A stretch of DNA of 64,000 bases from Escherichia coli (lineage in GTDB: Bacteria > Pseudomonadota > Gammaproteobacteria > Enterobacterales > Enterobacteriaceae): assembly GCF_003019035.1 (NCBI RefSeq), contig NZ_CP027447.1. One strand, 5' to 3'. The notes under the pieces are model-generated. The model searched no databases. It saw only the letters and a list, made by a program, of their open reading frames with translations, and was not told the origin of the DNA. This document shows positions 18,194 through 58,204 of this stretch, one piece after another (within the stretch, counting starts at the first letter, position 1; every line of letters begins with the position of its first letter). Made by a program: the position numbers and the translations under genes.

Positions 18194-21084
<2,891 letters not shown>

Positions 21085-21092
21085 GTAACCGT

Positions 21093-21155
21093 GCCGGATG
21101 CGGCGTGAACGCCTTATCCGGCCTACAAGGCCCGATAAGCGTTGCGCATCGGGCA
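21093..21155. repeat. REP elements (two palindromic units)
   Basis: gccggatgcggcgtgaacgccttatccggcctac is the classic REP consensus; second unit cccgataagcgttgcgcatcggg. Confidence 0.8.
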
Positions 21156-21170: not shown

Positions 21171-21434
21171 TCAGAGCTGGTTCACCCCATCAAGAACATC
21201 CCCCTTTATCAAGCAACGCTGCGTCAGCGCCAGATCTTCCGATTGCGGGTCGCGCCCGGCGATGGGTTTGAGGACGAGTTTACGGTTGGGGGTATAAGTA
21301 AAACGCGTGAGCGCGGGATAGCTTAACTTGCCAAACCAGCCGTGAACACGCTGCCATTTGGCGTCTTTTACCTGATACAGACTGGTTATCCAGTAACCGG
21401 AATCAAACTGCATATCCAGCAATTGCGTGTGGCC
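21171..21434 (-). pseudogene. C-terminal fragment of a host ORF split by the prophage
   Basis: Frame is continuous with the N-terminal fragment at 57696..58204 once the prophage and one copy of the direct repeat are removed. Confidence 0.7.
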
Positions 21435-21440
21435 ATTCCT
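21435..21440. repeat. Left target-site duplication (ATTCCT; 5 or 6 bp)
   Basis: Identical ATTCCT immediately flanks the other prophage end at 57695..57700. Confidence 0.7.
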
Positions 21441-21483
21441 TGATCAGACATGAGATAAATGAAGGGGGATCCGTGAGATAAAT
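21441..21483. repeat. Left prophage end with putative transposase-binding repeats
   Basis: TGAGATAAAT at 21451 and 21474; inverted copy at the right end (57652..57661). Confidence 0.6.
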
Positions 21484-21801
21484 AACGAATTGGAGTGGGT
21501 TAACATGGGTTCTGGTGAACAGAACTGAAATTCTTTTTCGTTATACGATAGATAAGTCGGACATTGAAATCATCCTTTCTGGCAACTTAGAATCGAGTTT
21601 GCTGAAACATGACTCGTAACAAAAAGGATGATTCCAATGACTACTCAAAACAATAAGCATGATAGCCTGGATTACTCAGAAAAGCCCAAAAGCAAGCACA
21701 TCGTGACGTTCGAGCGCGATTCCGGTAGAAAAGGAGAATCGTCTTCCTCTGCCAATAAAAACACTATACCGGCAGCTCCTGCTCCGGGGAAAAAATAAAC
21801 A

Positions 21802-22434
21802 TCATTCATCGTTCGTTGCACGAACGCGCCTGATCTCCACTCTGGCAATCTGATCTGCTGGAATATAGGTTGCCAGAGCTCCCCAGTACTTATCAACCAC
21901 GCCTTTATACTCTTCCCATTCGTTACTGCCTGAAGGGCTGCTGTGTGTGACGTAAAGAACCATATCGCCTTTATTCCCCAGGGTAAACGGACCGTTAGGC
22001 CACTCTTCAAAGTTCCCTGGCAGTCGTGACATCATACCGGAACCATCGCGAAGAATCACTCTGACCTCGGTGACGCTGAAGTCTGTTTGATCAAACATTG
22101 CCTGCCATGCTGAGCTGGTATCGTCAGACCATGAAATATCATTATTCCACAGTAATCTGTACATCCATTTGCGACCGTACCTGCGCCACCACGCACCACA
22201 TGTAACAGCACACAGAAGTGCTGGTGGTGTTGCCAGCCAGGCATTCAGACCTGCCCACATAACAGCCTGGTAAGCCATCATTGCTGTCAGGCCAAAAATT
22301 AGCGAAGAAAAAGTCACCTCAATGGGTTTGTGCTGATCCTTCAGCCCCACATTCGCAATAAAATACCCAATATAGCCACTGGTCAGAGTCACCAGTGTTG
22401 CCCATGGCAAATTTAACAACGAAACGTCAAACAT
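21802..22434 (-). CDS. Hypothetical membrane protein (three predicted TM helices plus ~130 aa soluble domain); terminal moron
   Basis: ORF with GGAG RBS before MFDVSLLNL; lies between the mor terminator and the prophage left end; lower GC than neighbouring phage genes. Confidence 0.55.
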   Translation of the reverse strand: MFDVSLLNLPWATLVTLTSGYIGYFIANVGLKDQHKPIEVTFSSLIFGLTAMMAYQAVMWAGLNAWLATPPALLCAVTCGAWWRRYGRKWMYRLLWNNDISWSDDTSSAWQAMFDQTDFSVTEVRVILRDGSGMMSRLPGNFEEWPNGPFTLGNKGDMVLYVTHSSPSGSNEWEEYKGVVDKYWGALATYIPADQIARVEIRRVRATNDE

Positions 22435-22472
22435 ATTTTCTCCCTGCATCCTGAATACTACAGAGAGAGCAT

Positions 22473-22504
22473 AAAAAAAGCACGGTAAGGGGTCTACCGT
22501 GCTT
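22473..22504 (-). terminator. Rho-independent terminator downstream of mor
   Basis: Stem agcacggta/taccgtgct followed by a U7 run on the minus-strand transcript. Confidence 0.7.
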
Positions 22505-22548
22505 TTATACAATAAGGAGATTTTTGAAAGGACTTTAACAAGCAGGAA

Positions 22549-22947
22549 TTATCTGGATTTGTTAACGTCTCTCGTCTCTTCTGGCAGATCTTCATCAAAC
22601 AACCTGCCCTGCATCCGATCCAGTTCTTCTTTTCTGACCCGCTTAACCACGCTGTAGACCCACTGAAGCGAAACACCAAACTTGCGGGCCAGTTCATGGT
22701 GGTTGCGTCCGTTAAACTCCCGGAAGATTTCCCGGTCGCGCTGACTGACCTTCCATACCATGCCCATCGGGAAATAAACGTTTTGCCCGCCCCAGACCTG
22801 CATCATGCGGTTCGCGACGGCCTGACCAATCTGGTCGGCAATTGCGGGCTCAATATCAATAATCTCGCGAACGGTCTCAGAGGTATGCTGTGCCAGTTCC
22901 ACCAGGAGTTCCGGCCCTTTACTTCGAAACTGATTCAGGTCGCTCAT
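22549..22947 (-). CDS. mor: Mor/C-family middle/late transcription activator
   Basis: IFREFNGRNHHELARKFGVSLQWVYSVVKRVRK closely resembles the conserved Mu Mor C-terminal HTH region. Confidence 0.75.
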   Translation of the reverse strand: MSDLNQFRSKGPELLVELAQHTSETVREIIDIEPAIADQIGQAVANRMMQVWGGQNVYFPMGMVWKVSQRDREIFREFNGRNHHELARKFGVSLQWVYSVVKRVRKEELDRMQGRLFDEDLPEETRDVNKSR

Positions 22948-26178: not shown

Positions 26179-27345
26179 TTAAACCCCTTTGACAACGTCA
26201 GCGTTGACCTGTGGAACCCCGATTTCAGCGGCCAGATTCATGGCGGCTATCACCAGGTTACTGACGGCCAGCGGATACAACAGGCTGACCATATTTTTAC
26301 GATGACTTCCCGGATTGCTCAGGCGGGCACGTATGGCATCCACTGCACTGGCGTCCATAATGTCCGTCAGTTGTTTACCTGCCCGTTGCAGTTTGAACGT
26401 CAGAAACTCTTCAAGGTTATTGTCCAGAGGCAGAAGTTCGACCACCTCACAGCGCTGAACGACTTCACGGACTTCCATATTGCGTTCAGACAGTTTTGTC
26501 GCCAGTTCCGGCTGGCCAATCAGCACGATGGACAGCAGTTTTTTGAAACCGGACTCCAGCTCAAAAAAGCGTTTGAGGTGTTTCAGTGTCGGAATGGGCA
26601 GACTGTGGGCCTCCTCAATCACCAGAACGTGGCTGAACCCCGCCTGGCTGCTGTCTTTCAGGACGCGATGCAACTGGCGAAAGCGGGCGTCCTGACTGCG
26701 TCTGATGCTTTCCAGTGGTGCGATGGTACTGATAATGGCTTCGGCAATAGCTGCTGCCTTCAGGGTTTTCCCTTTCACATCGTTGTCTTCCATAGCGATG
26801 ATGTATGGCTCGATAACAATTACCGGCGCATTCTCGCGGTTGATACGTTCAGTCAGGTCGCGGCGCAGCGTGGATTTACCCGCACCGGACTCACCGATGA
26901 CGGCCATAAACCCACCATGACGGGCTGTCTGGTACAACGCCTCACGCACGTAGCGAATGTCCGGGGTGGTGAACACATCATCAGAACCCTGCATGGCTTC
27001 GTCGGCGAACGGGTCACGGAAAAGACCAAACGCTTTTTTGGTTGCTGGAAATAACACCTGTTTTTTGAGTAACATATTCTCTTCCTCACTGAGGCTCGTT
27101 TTATCTGTGGTACCCGCTGTACGGGGCGTGGCCGCGCCCTGTACAGCATCAAAACTCTTCGCTGTATCAATCCCCTGACTTTCCAGCCAGGACGCAAGAC
27201 GCCGGCGCACTTCTCCGGGGCTGGTGCGGGGCCACGCGTTATGATTCACAATCTGGGCCAGCGTGGCCTCAGAAACATCGACAGCTCTCGCCACCACCGC
27301 CTGTGGAATACGGGCCTCTTTCAGTTGCTGCTTCAGTACCAGCAT
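26179..27345 (-). CDS. Transposition ATPase (Mu B-like AAA+ protein)
   Basis: Walker A GESGAGKST; N-terminal HTH-like region; GAGGAGG RBS; immediately downstream of the transposase. Confidence 0.8.
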   Translation of the reverse strand: MLVLKQQLKEARIPQAVVARAVDVSEATLAQIVNHNAWPRTSPGEVRRRLASWLESQGIDTAKSFDAVQGAATPRTAGTTDKTSLSEEENMLLKKQVLFPATKKAFGLFRDPFADEAMQGSDDVFTTPDIRYVREALYQTARHGGFMAVIGESGAGKSTLRRDLTERINRENAPVIVIEPYIIAMEDNDVKGKTLKAAAIAEAIISTIAPLESIRRSQDARFRQLHRVLKDSSQAGFSHVLVIEEAHSLPIPTLKHLKRFFELESGFKKLLSIVLIGQPELATKLSERNMEVREVVQRCEVVELLPLDNNLEEFLTFKLQRAGKQLTDIMDASAVDAIRARLSNPGSHRKNMVSLLYPLAVSNLVIAAMNLAAEIGVPQVNADVVKGV

Positions 27346-27355
27346 GTTTCCCTCC

Positions 27356-29125
27356 TCAGTTGCCGTTAACAATGCTGATAACGCTGCTGCGGGCCGGCGT
27401 GGTCAGCGTGGCCATGACTTCATCCAGTGCGGCTTCCGGTACGCCGTCCGGGTACTGTGCCGTTAACTGGCGGTAATGTTCCGGCGTCCAGGTAAGGCCG
27501 TCGGCGCTGAACTTATCGCGCAGGGCTTTCGCGGCCTCCACATGAGTCATGGGACGTTGTTCAGTGCGCGGTCTGCGTACATCAGAGGCCTGACCGCGCT
27601 TCGGTATACAGGCCGGAAGTGTGGCGTCATCAATATGTTTATACGGGTCAAGCCGCCCGCCGAACGGCAGCGCCTTCGCCTTGCGTGCGGCAGCTGCATC
27701 TGCGGCGTTGTCTGTACCGGTGACCAGCGCTTCGGTTTCTTTTGCCGCCGTCTGTGCCGGTGTTTCCGGCAGGGCTTTGTAACTTTCGCCAAATACCGCC
27801 GCGCCTTCAGCAAAGCCAAACTCGTTCTTTCTGACCTCTTCGACCAGGAAGAACGTCTCGTGGCCGTCCTCACCGGTCAGAACCACCTGTGCCACATCGC
27901 TGCGCCATGGGTTACGGGTAATCATCAGTTTTTCACCAACCAGTACGCCCGGTACCGTTGATACGTCAAATTCAGTGCCCCGGAACGAGACACGAAGTTT
28001 TGGCGTGACTTTGCGGAGTTCTGGTGTCGTCACAGCCAGTTCACGGCATACCTCAACGGAAGGCGCTTTTTTCAGCTGCTCAGCAGTAATCTTCAGCCAG
28101 ATATCCGTGCGGGTTTTACCGTGGCGGCTGTGAACAGCTGTTGCGTTAAAGTGGCTACGCCATTTCGCGGCCAGCGCGTTGAGTTCTTCCAGACTGTGAA
28201 CCGGCCGGAACTTCAGACCCGGCTCCAGCTTGCGTTCGATAATGTCACGCGCCTTTTCCACCTGTCCGGTGGCGCGGGCGTTATGCGGCTTGTGCGCTAT
28301 CAGGTCGATGCCCAGTGAGCGGCACATGTTTTTCGTCATACCCGCGGTGTTTGCCGAGCCGGGGTCGAGATAGAGTATTTTCGGCACGCCGTGCAGCACG
28401 TCTGCGCCGCCACGCTCCTGCATGGCGTTGATAAGCACAGAACACAGGTTCTCACCGGATTCCGCACCCGTCACATACTCAACGTAAATCCAGCCGCTGG
28501 CATGGTCGGTAATCTCGTAACTCCACACGCGGTCACTGGCGATACGGGCAAGGTTAGCGGGCTTGTTCTTGTAGAACTTCGCGCTGTCCATCACCTGCAG
28601 CCCTTTGTGTCCATTGCTCAGGTAGTAAAGCGTGCAGAGAGAGGCATCAATCTGCCAGACATGATTGGGATGCAGACTGGCCACTTCGGTATGCGGCGCA
28701 GGGGCATCCAGTTGTTCCGGGTGCAGGCCATAGTTACGCAGGGCACGGCTGATAGCATCTTCGGACAACGGGAAAAACTCACCGGTGGTTTCATCTGTTC
28801 TGCCTGCGGAGATAAAGCCGTTAGCCCGCAGGGTTTCCACTGCATCTGCGATGGAATAGAGACGCTTACCGTTCTTGCGGGTGGCCTCACGTAGTGTGGC
28901 AGATATCAGCGCGGCTTCGTCGCGGGTCAGGGCGCTGCGCCCGGCATCGGCGCGTTTTTTGCGTTTATCAGTCACAGAGACCTCCTTCAGCCTGCGCAGC
29001 AGAGTGGCGCGGGACATGCCAAGTTCAGCACAGGCGGCGTCATATATTGCACCACGTTTACCATGCCCCGCGTCACGTGCCGCGCGGGCGACATAAACCA
29101 GTCGTTCAGTCAGGGCAGCATTCAT
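27356..29125 (-). CDS. DDE transposase (Mu A-like)
   Basis: 589 aa; N-terminal HTH-like region, integrase-core motifs (HVWQIDAS, YLDPGSANT). Confidence 0.8.
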   Translation of the reverse strand: MNAALTERLVYVARAARDAGHGKRGAIYDAACAELGMSRATLLRRLKEVSVTDKRKKRADAGRSALTRDEAALISATLREATRKNGKRLYSIADAVETLRANGFISAGRTDETTGEFFPLSEDAISRALRNYGLHPEQLDAPAPHTEVASLHPNHVWQIDASLCTLYYLSNGHKGLQVMDSAKFYKNKPANLARIASDRVWSYEITDHASGWIYVEYVTGAESGENLCSVLINAMQERGGADVLHGVPKILYLDPGSANTAGMTKNMCRSLGIDLIAHKPHNARATGQVEKARDIIERKLEPGLKFRPVHSLEELNALAAKWRSHFNATAVHSRHGKTRTDIWLKITAEQLKKAPSVEVCRELAVTTPELRKVTPKLRVSFRGTEFDVSTVPGVLVGEKLMITRNPWRSDVAQVVLTGEDGHETFFLVEEVRKNEFGFAEGAAVFGESYKALPETPAQTAAKETEALVTGTDNAADAAAARKAKALPFGGRLDPYKHIDDATLPACIPKRGQASDVRRPRTEQRPMTHVEAAKALRDKFSADGLTWTPEHYRQLTAQYPDGVPEAALDEVMATLTTPARSSVISIVNGN

Positions 29126-54876: not shown

Positions 54877-55845
54877 ATGGCAAATCTACCCGAAACCCCG
54901 CAGTGGGAAAGCGGCATCTACCAGATTGAGGTCTCTGACCCCGTTCTGGGCGGACCTGACGGAATTTCTAACCGCCAGGCTAAACAACTGGCCAGCCGAA
55001 CGTCATACCTCAAACAGAAGGTCGAAAAAAGCGGAACAGACCTGGCTGCACATATCGCGGCAGTTGACCCGCATACCCAGTACGCGACGAAAGCCAGTCC
55101 GACATTCACCGGCACACCAACAGCACCTACACCTGCAAATGGTGATAACAGCAAAAAGCTGGCGACGACGGAGTTTGTGGCCAAAGCACTTGCGGCACTT
55201 GCAGGCAGCGCCCCTGAGACACTGGATACGCTTAAAGAGCTGGCTGACGCTCTCGGTAATGATCCAAACTTTGCGACTACGGTACTGAACAAGCTGGCGG
55301 AAAAGCTGGCTAAAGACCAGAACGGCGCAGATATTCCTGAGCCTGCGCTGTTTGTCAAAAACCTTGGTTTGGGGGAAGGCTCTGCACTGCCCGTTGGTGT
55401 GCCCGTTCCGTGGCCCTTAGCAACACCACCAACGGGCTGGCTGAAATGTAACGGTGCAGCATTTTCTTCTGAAATGTACCCCAAACTGGCAAAAGCCTAC
55501 CCCGCGAATAAATTACCGGATTTACGCGGAGAATTTATCCGTGGCTGGGATGATGGGCGAGGAATTGATGCGGCACGCGCTTTATTGAGCATTCAAAACG
55601 GGATGTTGGAAAAACACCGCCATATTGTTGTAGCTAACGATGGATATGACACAAAAGATGAATGGGAGTTGGCTACGATTTTCAAAAAAACATATACACA
55701 AGGCAGGGGGCTTGATGCCACAAATACAGGAGGGAGTTTGACTCCATCACCAACGCTTCATTCACGAGGAAGTATTGGTAACACAGGTGGTAGTGAAACC
55801 CGCCCCCGCAATATTGCATTTAACTATATCGTGAGGGCGGCTTAG
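54877..55845 (+). CDS. Tail fibre protein (constant N-terminus plus invertible C-terminal variant 1)
   Basis: 322 aa; tail-collar-like domain (GWLKCNGAAFSSEMYPKLAKAY...LPDLRGEFIRGWDDGRGID); C-terminal part lies inside the invertible segment. Confidence 0.8.
   Translation: MANLPETPQWESGIYQIEVSDPVLGGPDGISNRQAKQLASRTSYLKQKVEKSGTDLAAHIAAVDPHTQYATKASPTFTGTPTAPTPANGDNSKKLATTEFVAKALAALAGSAPETLDTLKELADALGNDPNFATTVLNKLAEKLAKDQNGADIPEPALFVKNLGLGEGSALPVGVPVPWPLATPPTGWLKCNGAAFSSEMYPKLAKAYPANKLPDLRGEFIRGWDDGRGIDAARALLSIQNGMLEKHRHIVVANDGYDTKDEWELATIFKKTYTQGRGLDATNTGGSLTPSPTLHSRGSIGNTGGSETRPRNIAFNYIVRAA
55352..55377. other. Left invertase crossover site (gix/hix-like)
   Basis: TTGTCAAAAACC-TT-GGTTTGGGGGAA; outer half-site matches the Hin/Gin half-site TTATCAAAAACC. 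Confidence 0.7.
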
Positions 55846-55851
55846 TTATAT

Positions 55852-56469
55852 TCAACTGGCTGCTGCCAGAGGCATTTCCGGCCAGTTGATATCCGGTGCA
55901 GTGCTGATGTCAGTCGCATTAAGCACATCTATGAAATCAAGCACGGCGTTTAGTTTTTCCGTCTCCTGGGGCGTCAATCGGCGTCCGGCTCGTAGTTTGA
56001 GATTTATAAGCTCAACAGATGCCATTGCCTGTTCCTCAAGTTGCTGACGATGCACTCCGGCAGCTTCCAGTTCTGCTGCGTGCTGTCGTCCCGCATCTGT
56101 CACCCAGGTCTCACCATCCCAGACATCATAGATAGTAGCTGGCTGTTTCACCGTCGTATCAGGAGGGTAATCTCCCGGTTGTGTGATTTGCACAGCGTTA
56201 CCATTCTCTGTGCTGTAAACCGTTTCGCCTCTGTGGTCTGGAACATATTTCCAGATGTTCTGGTCGGTATCACGACAGACAGCGAAGCCGGGGCGTTTTT
56301 CTGGTGGCGCGTCAATGCATGAGTGAGCCGGAATTCCAACACCATAAGCGAGATACTCAACAGTGGCAGAGAGATATTCACGGTTTTCAGCATCGTAGTT
56401 ATAAACGGTAATATCGCCTGCAGTTATAGCGATACCATTCTGATCAAGTACTGCAGCAGCATTATTCAT
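55852..56469 (-). CDS. Tail fibre assembly protein (Tfa)
   Basis: 205 aa; C-terminal TDISTAPDINWPEMP resembles the Tfa motif DTSTAPDIEWP. Confidence 0.8.
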   Translation of the reverse strand: MNNAAAVLDQNGIAITAGDITVYNYDAENREYLSATVEYLAYGVGIPAHSCIDAPPEKRPGFAVCRDTDQNIWKYVPDHRGETVYSTENGNAVQITQPGDYPPDTTVKQPATIYDVWDGETWVTDAGRQHAAELEAAGVHRQQLEEQAMASVELINLKLRAGRRLTPQETEKLNAVLDFIDVLNATDISTAPDINWPEMPLAAAS

Positions 56470-56966
56470 TAAGTAGCCCTTACAATATAGTTAAACGCAA
56501 TATTACGGGGGCGGTTTTCCGTTCCTGTATTCCCTCCGTTGGCACCTAATCTATAAACACCACGAGTGCCAATAGCACGTAGTGAAGATGGAACTTTTAC
56601 ACCTGACTCATCTGTTTTAACAATCCCGCCATCACCGTATGTAGCCAGTATACCAGGGTTTGTTCCTGCACGGGTGCTATTTGCGGCAAGCCCTTCACCA
56701 GTCCATAACTCCATATAGTGAATATGATCTATAACCGAATGTGATTGTGCATTAAGCAAGGAACGCCCTGAATCAATTCCCCGCCCGTCATCCCAGCCGC
56801 GAATAAACTCACCCCGTAAATCCGGTAATTTATTCGCGGGGTAGGCTTTTGCCAGTTTGGGGTACATTTCAGAAGAAAATGCTGCACCGTTACATTTCAG
56901 CCACCCTGCTGGCGGTGTGGCTGAGGGCCACGGAACGGGCACACCAACGGGCAGTGCAGAGCCTTC
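56469..56966 (-). CDS. Alternative tail-fibre C-terminal cassette (expressed after inversion)
   Basis: Encodes the same tail-collar region (GEGSALPVGVPVPWP...RGWDDGRGID) followed by a different C-terminus. Confidence 0.7.
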   Translation of the reverse strand, partial: EGSALPVGVPVPWPSATPPAGWLKCNGAAFSSEMYPKLAKAYPANKLPDLRGEFIRGWDDGRGIDSGRSLLNAQSHSVIDHIHYMELWTGEGLAANSTRAGTNPGILATYGDGGIVKTDESGVKVPSSLRAIGTRGVYRLGANGGNTGTENRPRNIAFNYIVRAT

Positions 56967-56978
56967 CCCCAAACCAAC
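56953..56978. other. Right invertase crossover site (gix/hix-like)
   Basis: TTCCCCCAAACC-AA-CGTTTTCGTCTT; inner half-site is the inverted copy of the left inner half-site. Confidence 0.7.
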
Positions 56979-57043
56979 GTTTTCGTCTTAACTCCCACCT
57001 ATACCAGCTATGTATTTTTAACAAAACAAAGAGGATATTTTTC

Positions 57044-57616
57044 ATGCAAATTGGCTACATTCGTGTGTCAACAAATGACCAGAATACAGATTTACAACGA
57101 AACGCACTGAACTGCGCAGGATGTGAACTGATTTTTGAGGATAAAATCAGCGGAACAAAGTCAGCCCGACCGGGATTGAAAAAGCTGCTCAGAACGTTAT
57201 CAGAAGGAGATACGCTCGTTGTCTGGAAGCTGGACAGGCTGGGCAGAAGCATGAAACACCTCATCACTCTTATTGAGGAACTGCGGGAAAAAGGGGTTAA
57301 CTTCCGTAGTCTTACAGACAGCATTGATACGTCAACACCCATGGGACGTTTCTTTTTTCACGTCATGGGGGCTTTAGCGGAAATGGAGCGTGAATTAATA
57401 GTTGAACGAACACTGGCCGGACTTGAAGCAGCACGTGCACAGGGGCGTATTGGTGGACGTCGTCCGAAACTGACAAAAGAGCAACATGAACAAATAGCAA
57501 GGCTGATCAAAAATGGCTATAGCAGGAAACAGTTGGCAATTATTTACGATATCGGTATATCGACGATTTATCGTTATCACCCTGTAGAGGAACTTCAAAC
57601 TCAAGCTGAGTTGTAA
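57044..57616 (+). CDS. gin: Serine DNA invertase (Gin/Hin/Pin family)
   Basis: MQIGYIRVSTNDQNTDLQRNAL... with catalytic Ser in the YIRVST motif and C-terminal HTH; AAGAGGA RBS. Confidence 0.9.
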   Translation: MQIGYIRVSTNDQNTDLQRNALNCAGCELIFEDKISGTKSARPGLKKLLRTLSEGDTLVVWKLDRLGRSMKHLITLIEELREKGVNFRSLTDSIDTSTPMGRFFFHVMGALAEMERELIVERTLAGLEAARAQGRIGGRRPKLTKEQHEQIARLIKNGYSRKQLAIIYDIGISTIYRYHPVEELQTQAEL

Positions 57617-57651: not shown

Positions 57652-57694
57652 ATTTATCTCACGGAAATAGGTACGTTTATCGCGCGGCGCATCA
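57652..57694. repeat. Right prophage end with putative transposase-binding repeat
   Basis: ATTTATCTCA (inverse of TGAGATAAAT) 33 bp inside the terminus, symmetric with the left end; terminus ...GCGCATCA. Confidence 0.6.
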
Positions 57695-57700
57695 ATTCCT
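57695..57700. repeat. Right target-site duplication (ATTCCT; 5 or 6 bp)
   Basis: Identical to 21435..21440. Confidence 0.7.
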
Positions 57701-58204
57701 TTGTAAATCCAGCAAATCATCAATGCCAGTTTCACTTGCGGTATAAAAACTATCGGACTGAAAAACACACGGGCGACCTTGCTGATTAAAGGTCATCAGA
57801 ATCAAAAACGCGTTAGGTGCCAGACCATTTCCTGAAATACCCCGCCAGATAACCAGATCCTGAATGCCGTTACGATCAAGATCGGCACGGTAAAGTTGCG
57901 CATTACCCGCCATATTTTGCAGCACCCCCACAGGCACAGACCAGGATTTACCGGCGCGATCTTTACCGTTCAATTGCCATTCACTATCATCATTTGGCAT
58001 CTTTTCAAGCGTCACGCCAGCAACGCCGACTTTTCTAAAATGCCAGGTTTGCTCGGCATCATAAGGCATGGTCAGGAGAGGTTTCAGCGCCCGCTTTTGC
58101 GCGTATTCGCTGTCACTCATCGGCAGATATTCGGTAAAGCTGGTGGCCTGTGCAGGCAGCACTAAGCTCAATAAAAAAGCGCACATCCCTGTTCTGATGT
58201 TCAA
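57696..58204 (-). pseudogene. N-terminal fragment of the host ORF split by the prophage (signal-peptide protein)
   Basis: Signal-peptide-like N-terminus (MCAFLLSLVLPAQA); terminated by a TGA formed by the prophage's last 3 bp; in frame with 21171..21434. Confidence 0.7.

Follow-up and report, generated by a model that had tools for sequence, protein, structure and literature searches.

Phage morons that encode protective inner-membrane proteins are an established category, which is defined by comparison between related phages (PMC3594210); gp15 of HK97 and SieA of P22 are described as small inner-membrane proteins of temperate phages (PMC3594210, PMC10883804). Effectors built from membrane helices and a beta domain, such as Cap15 and OptE, act as oligomers whose disruption of the inner membrane is governed by a small ligand; OptE is kept inactive by its ligand and disrupts the membrane upon removal of that ligand (PMC12657218). 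Here we analyse a stretch of 64,000 nucleotides (nt) of Escherichia coli DNA (assembly GCF_003019035.1, contig NZ_CP027447.1), hereafter the window, in whose coordinates all positions are given. At the left end of a BcepMu-like transposable prophage it carries a cassette of two convergent genes, one encoding a membrane protein of 210 amino acids (aa; 21802-22434, minus strand) and the other a micro-protein of 53 aa (21637-21798, plus strand; micro-ORF, for micro-open reading frame). We tentatively propose, with a probability of about 45%, that in this two-gene moron a putative membrane effector is restrained by the micro-gene, acting in exclusion or abortive infection and possibly in addiction.

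Relation to described systems

The cassette resembles the HK97 gp15 and P22 SieA morons in being an insert that only some phages have, placed where relatives have neighbouring genes, in its deviating composition, in the terminator at its border and in encoding a small inner-membrane protein on a temperate phage. It differs from them in that no sequence or profile similarity was found, in its two convergent genes and in the cytoplasmic Sm-like domain predicted for its membrane protein. With the S-2TM-beta effectors (Cap15 of CBASS and OptE of Panoptes) the membrane protein shares N-terminal membrane helices, a cytoplasmic beta domain and a length of about 200 aa. A Foldseek search of AFDB50 returned members of the protein's own family, a few of them annotated as DUF421 and one as an S-2TM-beta effector; the AlphaFold DB relative annotated in this last way is A0A2E2SZZ5 (26% identity, Foldseek E = 2e-17). 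The predicted helices are nevertheless three here and two in those effectors, whose two-pass element is fused to a nucleotide-binding beta-barrel, and the partner here is a micro-protein. Neither the Pfam S_2TMBeta profile (window protein and 33 + 107 relatives) nor the PADLOC Cap15 profiles (window protein and 10 relatives) gave a match, and no gene for a CD-NTase or mCpol nucleotide synthase lay in the window or in any of about 25 contexts inspected. The annotation is thus a lead and not membership, as profile, topology and synthase linkage all failed.

A third comparison is offered by the type I toxin-antitoxin pairs txpA/RatA and bsrG/SR4 of Bacillus subtilis prophage regions, which are convergent, with an antisense RNA overlapping the 3' end. 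They too are carried by prophages and consist of a gene for a membrane protein and, converging on it without a terminator in between, a small gene driven by a promoter of its own. Their toxins are single-helix peptides of 30-60 aa and their partner is a non-coding RNA, whereas here a 210-aa membrane protein with a folded domain is paired with a gene that encodes a conserved peptide. The co-directional, autoregulated operon of type II toxin-antitoxin systems is not the layout found, since the genes of the cassette converge.

The membrane protein

The open reading frame listed by the program extends over 21802-22512 (minus strand), and its actual start is the ATG at 22434, which is preceded by AGGGAGAA and matched by the start of every homologue. 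The ORF of about 210 aa on which a preliminary description of this locus had centred is therefore real, and so is the setting given there: the gene lies 361-994 bp from the prophage terminus at 21441, and between it and mor (22549-22947, minus strand; RefSeq annotation, phrog_532), the gene for the Mor/C-family late activator and the last core gene of the early operon, stands a strong leftward intrinsic terminator, a hairpin at 22476-22506 (minus strand) of 13 pairs followed by seven T. A composition poorer in G+C than that of the neighbours had also been claimed and is borne out by a G+C fraction of 0.488 and a third-codon-position value (GC3) of 0.49, to be compared with 0.526 in mor (GC3 0.62), 0.538 in the early region, 0.54 in the whole prophage, and a GC3 of 0.60-0.63 for mor, A and B.

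The AlphaFold 2 (AF2) model of the protein (pLDDT 82) places helices at residues 11-27, 37-60 and 65-97 and a beta-rich domain at 119-205, in agreement with the three transmembrane helices and the soluble C-terminal domain described at first. The three hydrophobic segments are moderately hydrophobic, with Kyte-Doolittle means of 1.1-1.4 in a 17-residue window. Because RRYGRK follows directly on helix 3, the positive-inside rule assigns the C-terminal domain to the cytoplasm. Two fold searches of the PDB gave Sm/LSm proteins among the matches listed for the beta domain. The protein is therefore predicted to cross the membrane three times from an external N-terminus and to end in a small beta-barrel of Sm-like (LSm) type in the cytoplasm.

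A profile search of 1.84 billion representative proteins gathered 529 clusters of this family at 50% identity, nearly all of whose members are 200-215 aa long with one architecture; those that could be located belong to Alpha- and Gammaproteobacteria and to one cyanophage record. In PHROGs the protein matches phrog_12870, a family without functional label, and NCBIfam returned no match. The window protein matches no Pfam family, DUF6338 (PF19865) being unmatched even at E <= 10, while weak matches to DUF6338 occur in 11/33 and 11/107 relatives at E <= 1e-3 (best E 2e-6); DUF6338 comprises uncharacterised integral membrane proteins and is similar in size and in its membrane N-terminus. We regard the family as uncharacterised and at most distantly related to DUF6338. 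The structure and profile searches suggested in the preliminary description yielded an Sm-like fold and this weak similarity in relatives and no functional family. Fused domains were considered as a clue to function and discarded, as the longer relatives (P0148, P0170 and P0179) carry low-complexity extensions only.

The micro-protein partner

The cargo at this end of the prophage had been described as a single ORF. The membrane gene is indeed cargo, and the description missed the micro-ORF converging on it, whose stop codon is separated from that of the membrane gene by 3 nt. The micro-ORF encodes MTTQNNKHDSLDYSEKPKSKHIVTFERDSGRKGESSSSANKNTIPAAPAPGKK, annotated by RefSeq as hypothetical protein WP_023892643 and matching phrog_15726 (E = 8.5e-40), and a second possible ATG lies at 21628. 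Its product is hydrophilic and predicted to be disordered, and it ends in a proline-rich basic tail.

We examined every related locus with enough downstream DNA. A convergent hydrophilic ORF of 40-66 aa stands beside the membrane gene in 23 of the 25 non-redundant loci, with stop-to-stop distances of -20 to +43 nt. These loci comprise Mu-like prophages of Klebsiella, Salmonella, Citrobacter, Serratia and other enterobacteria, alphaproteobacterial loci whose membrane proteins are 30-45% identical (Bradyrhizobium, Afipia, Devosia, Pseudochrobactrum, Sphingobium, Allosphingosinicella and others), metagenomic contigs, a cyanophage record and a Rhodobacteraceae plasmid. Shuffling the downstream sequences of the 23 loci tested produced about 6 convergent ORFs of any kind and about 1 whose tail is rich in proline. 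In the alignment the micro-proteins have an N-terminal motif of the type S..PK, which reads DYSE.PK in enterobacteria and SY.P.T in alphaproteobacteria, and their C-termini are PAPGKK here and PPPPKK, PPPSPKKK or PPLPLKKK elsewhere. The cassette is hence made of two convergent genes whose pairing is conserved.

In some loci the micro-ORF is repeated in tandem: five copies occur on a Rhodobacteraceae plasmid (CP081163.1; L069, 5056-5830), three in the cyanophage record (PP438431.1; L061, 1125-1554) and two in each of L066 and L056. The array members of L069 and L061 each end in PPPPK(PK)(K/R), and the stretches with the arrays of the plasmid and the cyanophage record contain no annotated gene. 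The two exceptions to the pairing, L033 and L050, come from a symbiont-associated lineage in which the prophage ends about 170 nt after the membrane gene and no micro-ORF is found.

Accessory status and distribution

In BcepMu the last gene before the end, at a distance of 364 bp, is gp01, which encodes the Mor/C-like activator, and in PhiKM mor is the last phage gene, with no homologue of the membrane gene. A tblastn search of 50,697 phage records found no homologue except one distant match in a 'Synechococcus phage'. Our genome survey covered 5,426 complete E. coli genomes, of which 638 contain the B gene of this phage and 131 the membrane gene (121 near full-length, about 2% of the complete genomes). 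The junction from mor to the terminus without insert, about 150 bp long, occurs in 532 of the surveyed genomes, which carry the same phage backbone, a number inflated by clonal members of ST131 that share one insertion adjacent to ycaL. The preliminary description had placed the gene outside the conserved early set and had named homology to a conserved core phage protein as the result that would speak against it; no such homology was found, and close relatives lack the gene, which rules it out as a core gene. On this comparison the membrane gene and the micro-ORF are supported as optional moron cargo.

Carriers of the membrane gene are mainly extra-intestinal, human and poultry E. coli, and the cassette-bearing prophages stand at many chromosomal sites, which indicates that they are mobile now or were so recently. 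Alleles of the membrane gene (98%, 87%, 75% and 68% identity) occur in otherwise almost identical phages. An additional ORF of 78-95 aa is seen between mor and the membrane gene in L060 (3130-3366), L033 (5758-6000) and L008 (7690-7977); in L033, L035 and L036 this extra ORF carries a ...THWMPLP motif, which we take to be DUF551-like. The varied alleles and extra ORFs point to the interval from mor to the terminus of Bcepmuvirus-type phages as a cargo hotspot.

The position of the cassette differs between groups of bacteria. In the enterobacterial loci it always follows mor directly, with the membrane gene co-oriented with the early operon, and this is so even in loci whose transposase is 45-50% identical and whose Mor is 32-41% identical, the membrane protein there being 57-69% identical. 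In alphaproteobacteria the cassette lies within structural clusters of HK97 or gene-transfer-agent type, for example between adaptor and head closure genes in L041 (terminase, portal, protease, capsid, adaptor, cassette, head closure, tail terminator) and between distal tail protein and tail fibre in L043 (tape measure, distal tail protein, cassette, tail fibre). The 16.6-kb Rhodobacteraceae plasmid and the 20-kb record of 'Synechococcus phage Ssp-JY41' (PP438431.1) carry modules that closely resemble each other. Other neighbours are of toxin-antitoxin or mobile-element type (DUF4411 with an M78 peptidase, a HigB-like gene with a helix-turn-helix-M78 gene, ImmA/IrrE, recombinase). When the flanking ORFs of 12 loci were compared all against all, nothing but the membrane protein itself was shared, so that, the micro-ORF aside, no neighbour is conserved. 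Taking these contexts together we consider the cassette to be horizontally mobile between unrelated elements.

In three of the contexts that are not Mu-like, an ImmA/IrrE (M78) gene lies 0.7-2.7 kb downstream on the opposite strand (L006, 9756-11371; L066, 4031-5473; L069, 5862-6656), accompanied by DUF4411, a HigB-like gene or hypothetical genes. This nearness could reflect a functional link or the common occurrence of such genes as mobile-element cargo.

Transcription signals

The micro-ORF has a sigma-70-type promoter that reads inward (21564-21593, plus strand; TTGAAA, 18 nt, TAGAAT, 10/12 matches). The divergent alleles L047, L030/32, L036, L051 and L008 retain both hexamers and their spacing, 32-40 nt before the micro-ORF, within flanking sequence that differs. 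Each micro-ORF has an ATG, and the enterobacterial ones are preceded by a Shine-Dalgarno sequence and a promoter. Over the same region extends a conserved inverted repeat (21562-21639) with arms of 20 nt at 21562-21581 and 21620-21639 that are 90% complementary, so that the Shine-Dalgarno sequence and the start codons of the micro-ORF pair with the promoter's -35 region. Compensatory changes affect 7 of its 17 pairs across 7 alleles, and it folds stably on either strand (plus, -25.4 kcal/mol with z = -3.7; minus, -33.2 kcal/mol with z = -5.4). The repeat could occlude the ribosome-binding site on read-in transcripts or serve as a 3' stem-loop of the membrane-gene mRNA.

The hairpin after mor folds with -19.1 kcal/mol on the minus strand (z = -6.6) and with -16.7 kcal/mol on the plus strand, where it is followed by UUUUAU, and many enterobacterial alleles retain a hairpin in the same place. 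The terminator is possibly bidirectional and would then insulate the cassette from mor and mor from the micro-ORF transcript. No intrinsic terminator was found between the two convergent genes, so their transcripts must overlap unless Rho intervenes, and the micro-ORF transcript would be antisense to the entire membrane gene up to the hairpin at 22476-22506. An Rfam search of 21300-22700 gave no match. Upstream of the micro-ORF promoter lies another terminator-like hairpin pointing inward (21508-21526, plus strand; GGTTCTGGTGAACAGAACT and then a T-rich tail), which could shield the cassette against transcription reading in from the host.

Proposed function and alternative explanations

The mechanism that we envisage has the membrane protein as an effector at the cytoplasmic membrane. 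Oligomeric rings are the usual state of Sm-like domains, and those of the membrane protein may assemble it into an oligomer, possibly a ring, that perturbs the membrane or blocks the entry of DNA. In the healthy lysogen the micro-gene would restrain the membrane protein through its protein, through its antisense transcript or through both. The lysogen would thereby be shielded from other phages, by superinfection exclusion or by abortive infection, and addiction to the element may be a further effect. We favour an effector because of the accessory status and mobility of the cassette, the pairing of its genes, the architecture of the protein, the precedents of Cap15, OptE and the morons, and the toxin-antitoxin and defence-type neighbours found outside phages.

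Several results weigh against this proposal. PADLOC (PADLOC-DB v2.0, 2023) matched neither the window protein nor 10 diverse relatives, a profile search of PDB sequences gave nothing significant (best RRP4 at E = 0.46), and structures of Cap15 or OptE were not among the matches listed in the two PDB fold searches. The literature on DUF6338 offered a passing mention only, and searches with RefSeq accessions and with combinations of Sm-like, transmembrane, anti-phage and prophage returned nothing informative. We also modelled 23 pairs with AF2 as membrane protein, 30-aa Gly-Ser linker and micro-protein, and the micro-proteins obtained a pLDDT of 31-43 with no contact predicted, the alignment being shallow and the model monomeric. 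Docking of the proline tail onto the Sm/SH3-like barrel consequently has no support from AF2, although a test with these limits does not refute it. A strictly required antitoxin is disfavoured, since L033 and L050 keep the membrane gene in the absence of the micro-gene. Lastly, the preliminary description had proposed looking for a promoter of the membrane gene's own past the terminator, and no canonical one was found there; the best candidate (TAGACC, 17 nt, TATGCT) matches at 8/12 positions and overlaps the hairpin at 22476-22506. A more specific version of the proposal is possible and, in our view, less likely than not: an undescribed two-component system in which proline-tailed micro-proteins, encoded by one to five genes according to the extent of tandem duplication, would hold an Sm-like membrane protein inactive. 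Their loss or titration during infection would free a protein that permeabilises the inner membrane or blocks DNA entry, and the whole would be a new class of exclusion or abortive-infection module, spread as a moron among transposable phages, HK97/GTA-like elements, a cyanophage record and plasmids.

The missing promoter, and the fact that in every enterobacterial locus the membrane gene follows mor immediately and reads in the direction of the early operon, are also what one would see if the gene were a helper of the lytic cycle, silenced in the lysogen by antisense transcription and induced by transcription running past the mor terminator or by a Mor-dependent promoter that overlaps the hairpin, its product altering the membrane during phage development, for instance so as to exclude superinfecting phage, change the timing of lysis or prevent the re-adsorption of progeny. 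We judge this rather unlikely. Phage Mu does have a Mor-dependent middle promoter directly after mor, many alleles here keep upstream of the gene the hairpin, the T-run and then TATTCT or TATGCT, and the structural genes that lie upstream in L041 and L044 run in the same direction as the gene; yet the hairpin is a strong terminator, relatives without the gene are viable, and the cassette is found as well in non-phage settings, which have no Mor. The hairpin was in addition considered as a Mor-binding site, and its dyad was found once in the window with up to three mismatches allowed, so that it has no motif in common with the late promoters and the idea is unsupported. A pure addiction module, in which a labile antidote in the form of protein, antisense RNA or both counters a membrane toxin so that the carrier element is stabilised, with no role in conflicts between phages, would account for the very small, fast-evolving partner with its constitutive-looking promoter, for a convergent, terminator-free layout recalling type I antisense systems, for the multiple copies of the partner and for the occurrence of the cassette on a plasmid and beside toxin-antitoxin-like genes. 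It is less likely again, given that post-segregational killing would be of little gain to a transposable prophage, that the membrane gene survives alone in L033 and L050, and that similarity to known toxin families is lacking apart from the matches of lone relatives to Cpta_toxin (E = 4e-4) and Phage_holin_9 (E = 8e-4).

That the cargo serves the fitness of the host in ways unrelated to phages, as a small channel, a transporter or a membrane protein of the stress response, has a smaller chance still of being correct. The combination of membrane helices and an Sm-like domain recalls MscS-type channels, and the isolation sources of the carriers given above could point to such a role, but no transporter or channel family was matched, MscS was not among the matches listed in the PDB fold searches, and the distribution tracks phages and mobile elements over very different hosts and habitats instead of one niche. 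The membrane gene could finally act alone, the micro-ORFs being by-products of a conserved C- or G-rich 3' flank of that gene (for example a region of Rho loading or termination). PPPPKK corresponds to a C-rich and then A-rich tract right beside the stop codon of the membrane gene, AF2 gives the peptide no structure, and sequence searches with the micro-protein bring back close relatives only. Of all the explanations this is the one to which we give least credence, as the frames are open in nearly all loci, the motifs are kept at the level of amino acids, start codons and, in enterobacteria, ribosome-binding sites and promoters are in place, and complete ORFs are maintained in the tandem repeats.

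The prophage and its surroundings

The ascF/ascB-like genes at 18194-21084 identify the window as a segment of the E. coli chromosome. The element that hosts the cassette is, from its sequence, a BcepMu-like transposable prophage of 36.3 kb (21441-57694), the limits being drawn where similarity stops and from the TG...CA ends, the ATTCCT flanks and a split host ORF. Megablast against the complete E. coli genomes found the same element joined to rhaS, sfaA, mdfA, kefF, yodD and other host genes, with similarity ending at about 21441 on the left and at 57694 on the right in every match and the left base common to more than 10 insertion sites. The left terminus (21441-21483) begins with TG and contains TGAGATAAAT twice (21451-21460 and 21474-21483), and the left-end motif recurs in inverted form at the right end (ATTTATCTCA, 57652-57661), the two ends thus carrying repeated ATTTATCTCA motifs. 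These terminal repeats are presumably the end sites bound by the transposase. ATTCCT borders both ends (21435-21440 and 57695-57700), and the interrupted host ORF lies in two pieces, 57695-58204 and 21171-21440, both on the minus strand. Its N-terminus resembles a signal peptide (MCAFLLSLVLPAQA...), its N-terminal part ends in ...DLQRN and its C-terminal part begins with RNGHTQLL...; the codons for RN are present twice, the duplicated AGGAAT being the target-site duplication ATTCCT.

The early genes read leftward and include those for the transposase (27356-29125), an ExeA-like B protein (26179-27372), Gam, a DUF2786 protein, GemA and Mor, and the late genes point rightward from about 30690. 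The transposase shares 97.6% identity with its counterpart in Escherichia phage PhiKM (Bcepmuvirus) and 68% with gp09 of BcepMu. Near the right end, an invertible region like the G segment of Mu (55358-57616) surrounds the genes for tail fibre and tail-fibre assembly, with a 212-nt inverted pair (55358-55569/56772-56983, 93% complementary), a second pair of 50 nt and an ORF for a Gin-like recombinase (56849-57616, plus strand) just within the prophage end. Outside the left end, a palindrome of the repetitive extragenic palindromic (REP) type (21085-21135) follows directly on ascB, and on account of this element a megablast search with the ascB-flank region matches 5,425 of the 5,426 E. coli genomes, and every one of these at dozens of sites.

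Significance

No description of the pair of membrane protein and micro-protein was found in the searchable literature. The moron category itself is known, and what is added here is the conserved micro-protein partner and the spread of the cassette over unrelated types of phage. The cassette is a phage moron and a candidate two-gene defence or addiction module, which cannot yet be called a new category. If it protects lysogens, it would be a compact addition of less than 1 kb to the defences encoded by prophages, one unmatched in PADLOC-DB v2.0. Its micro-protein partner, present in some elements as tandem arrays, is easily overlooked in annotation and may provide a concrete case of a small protein that regulates a membrane effector.

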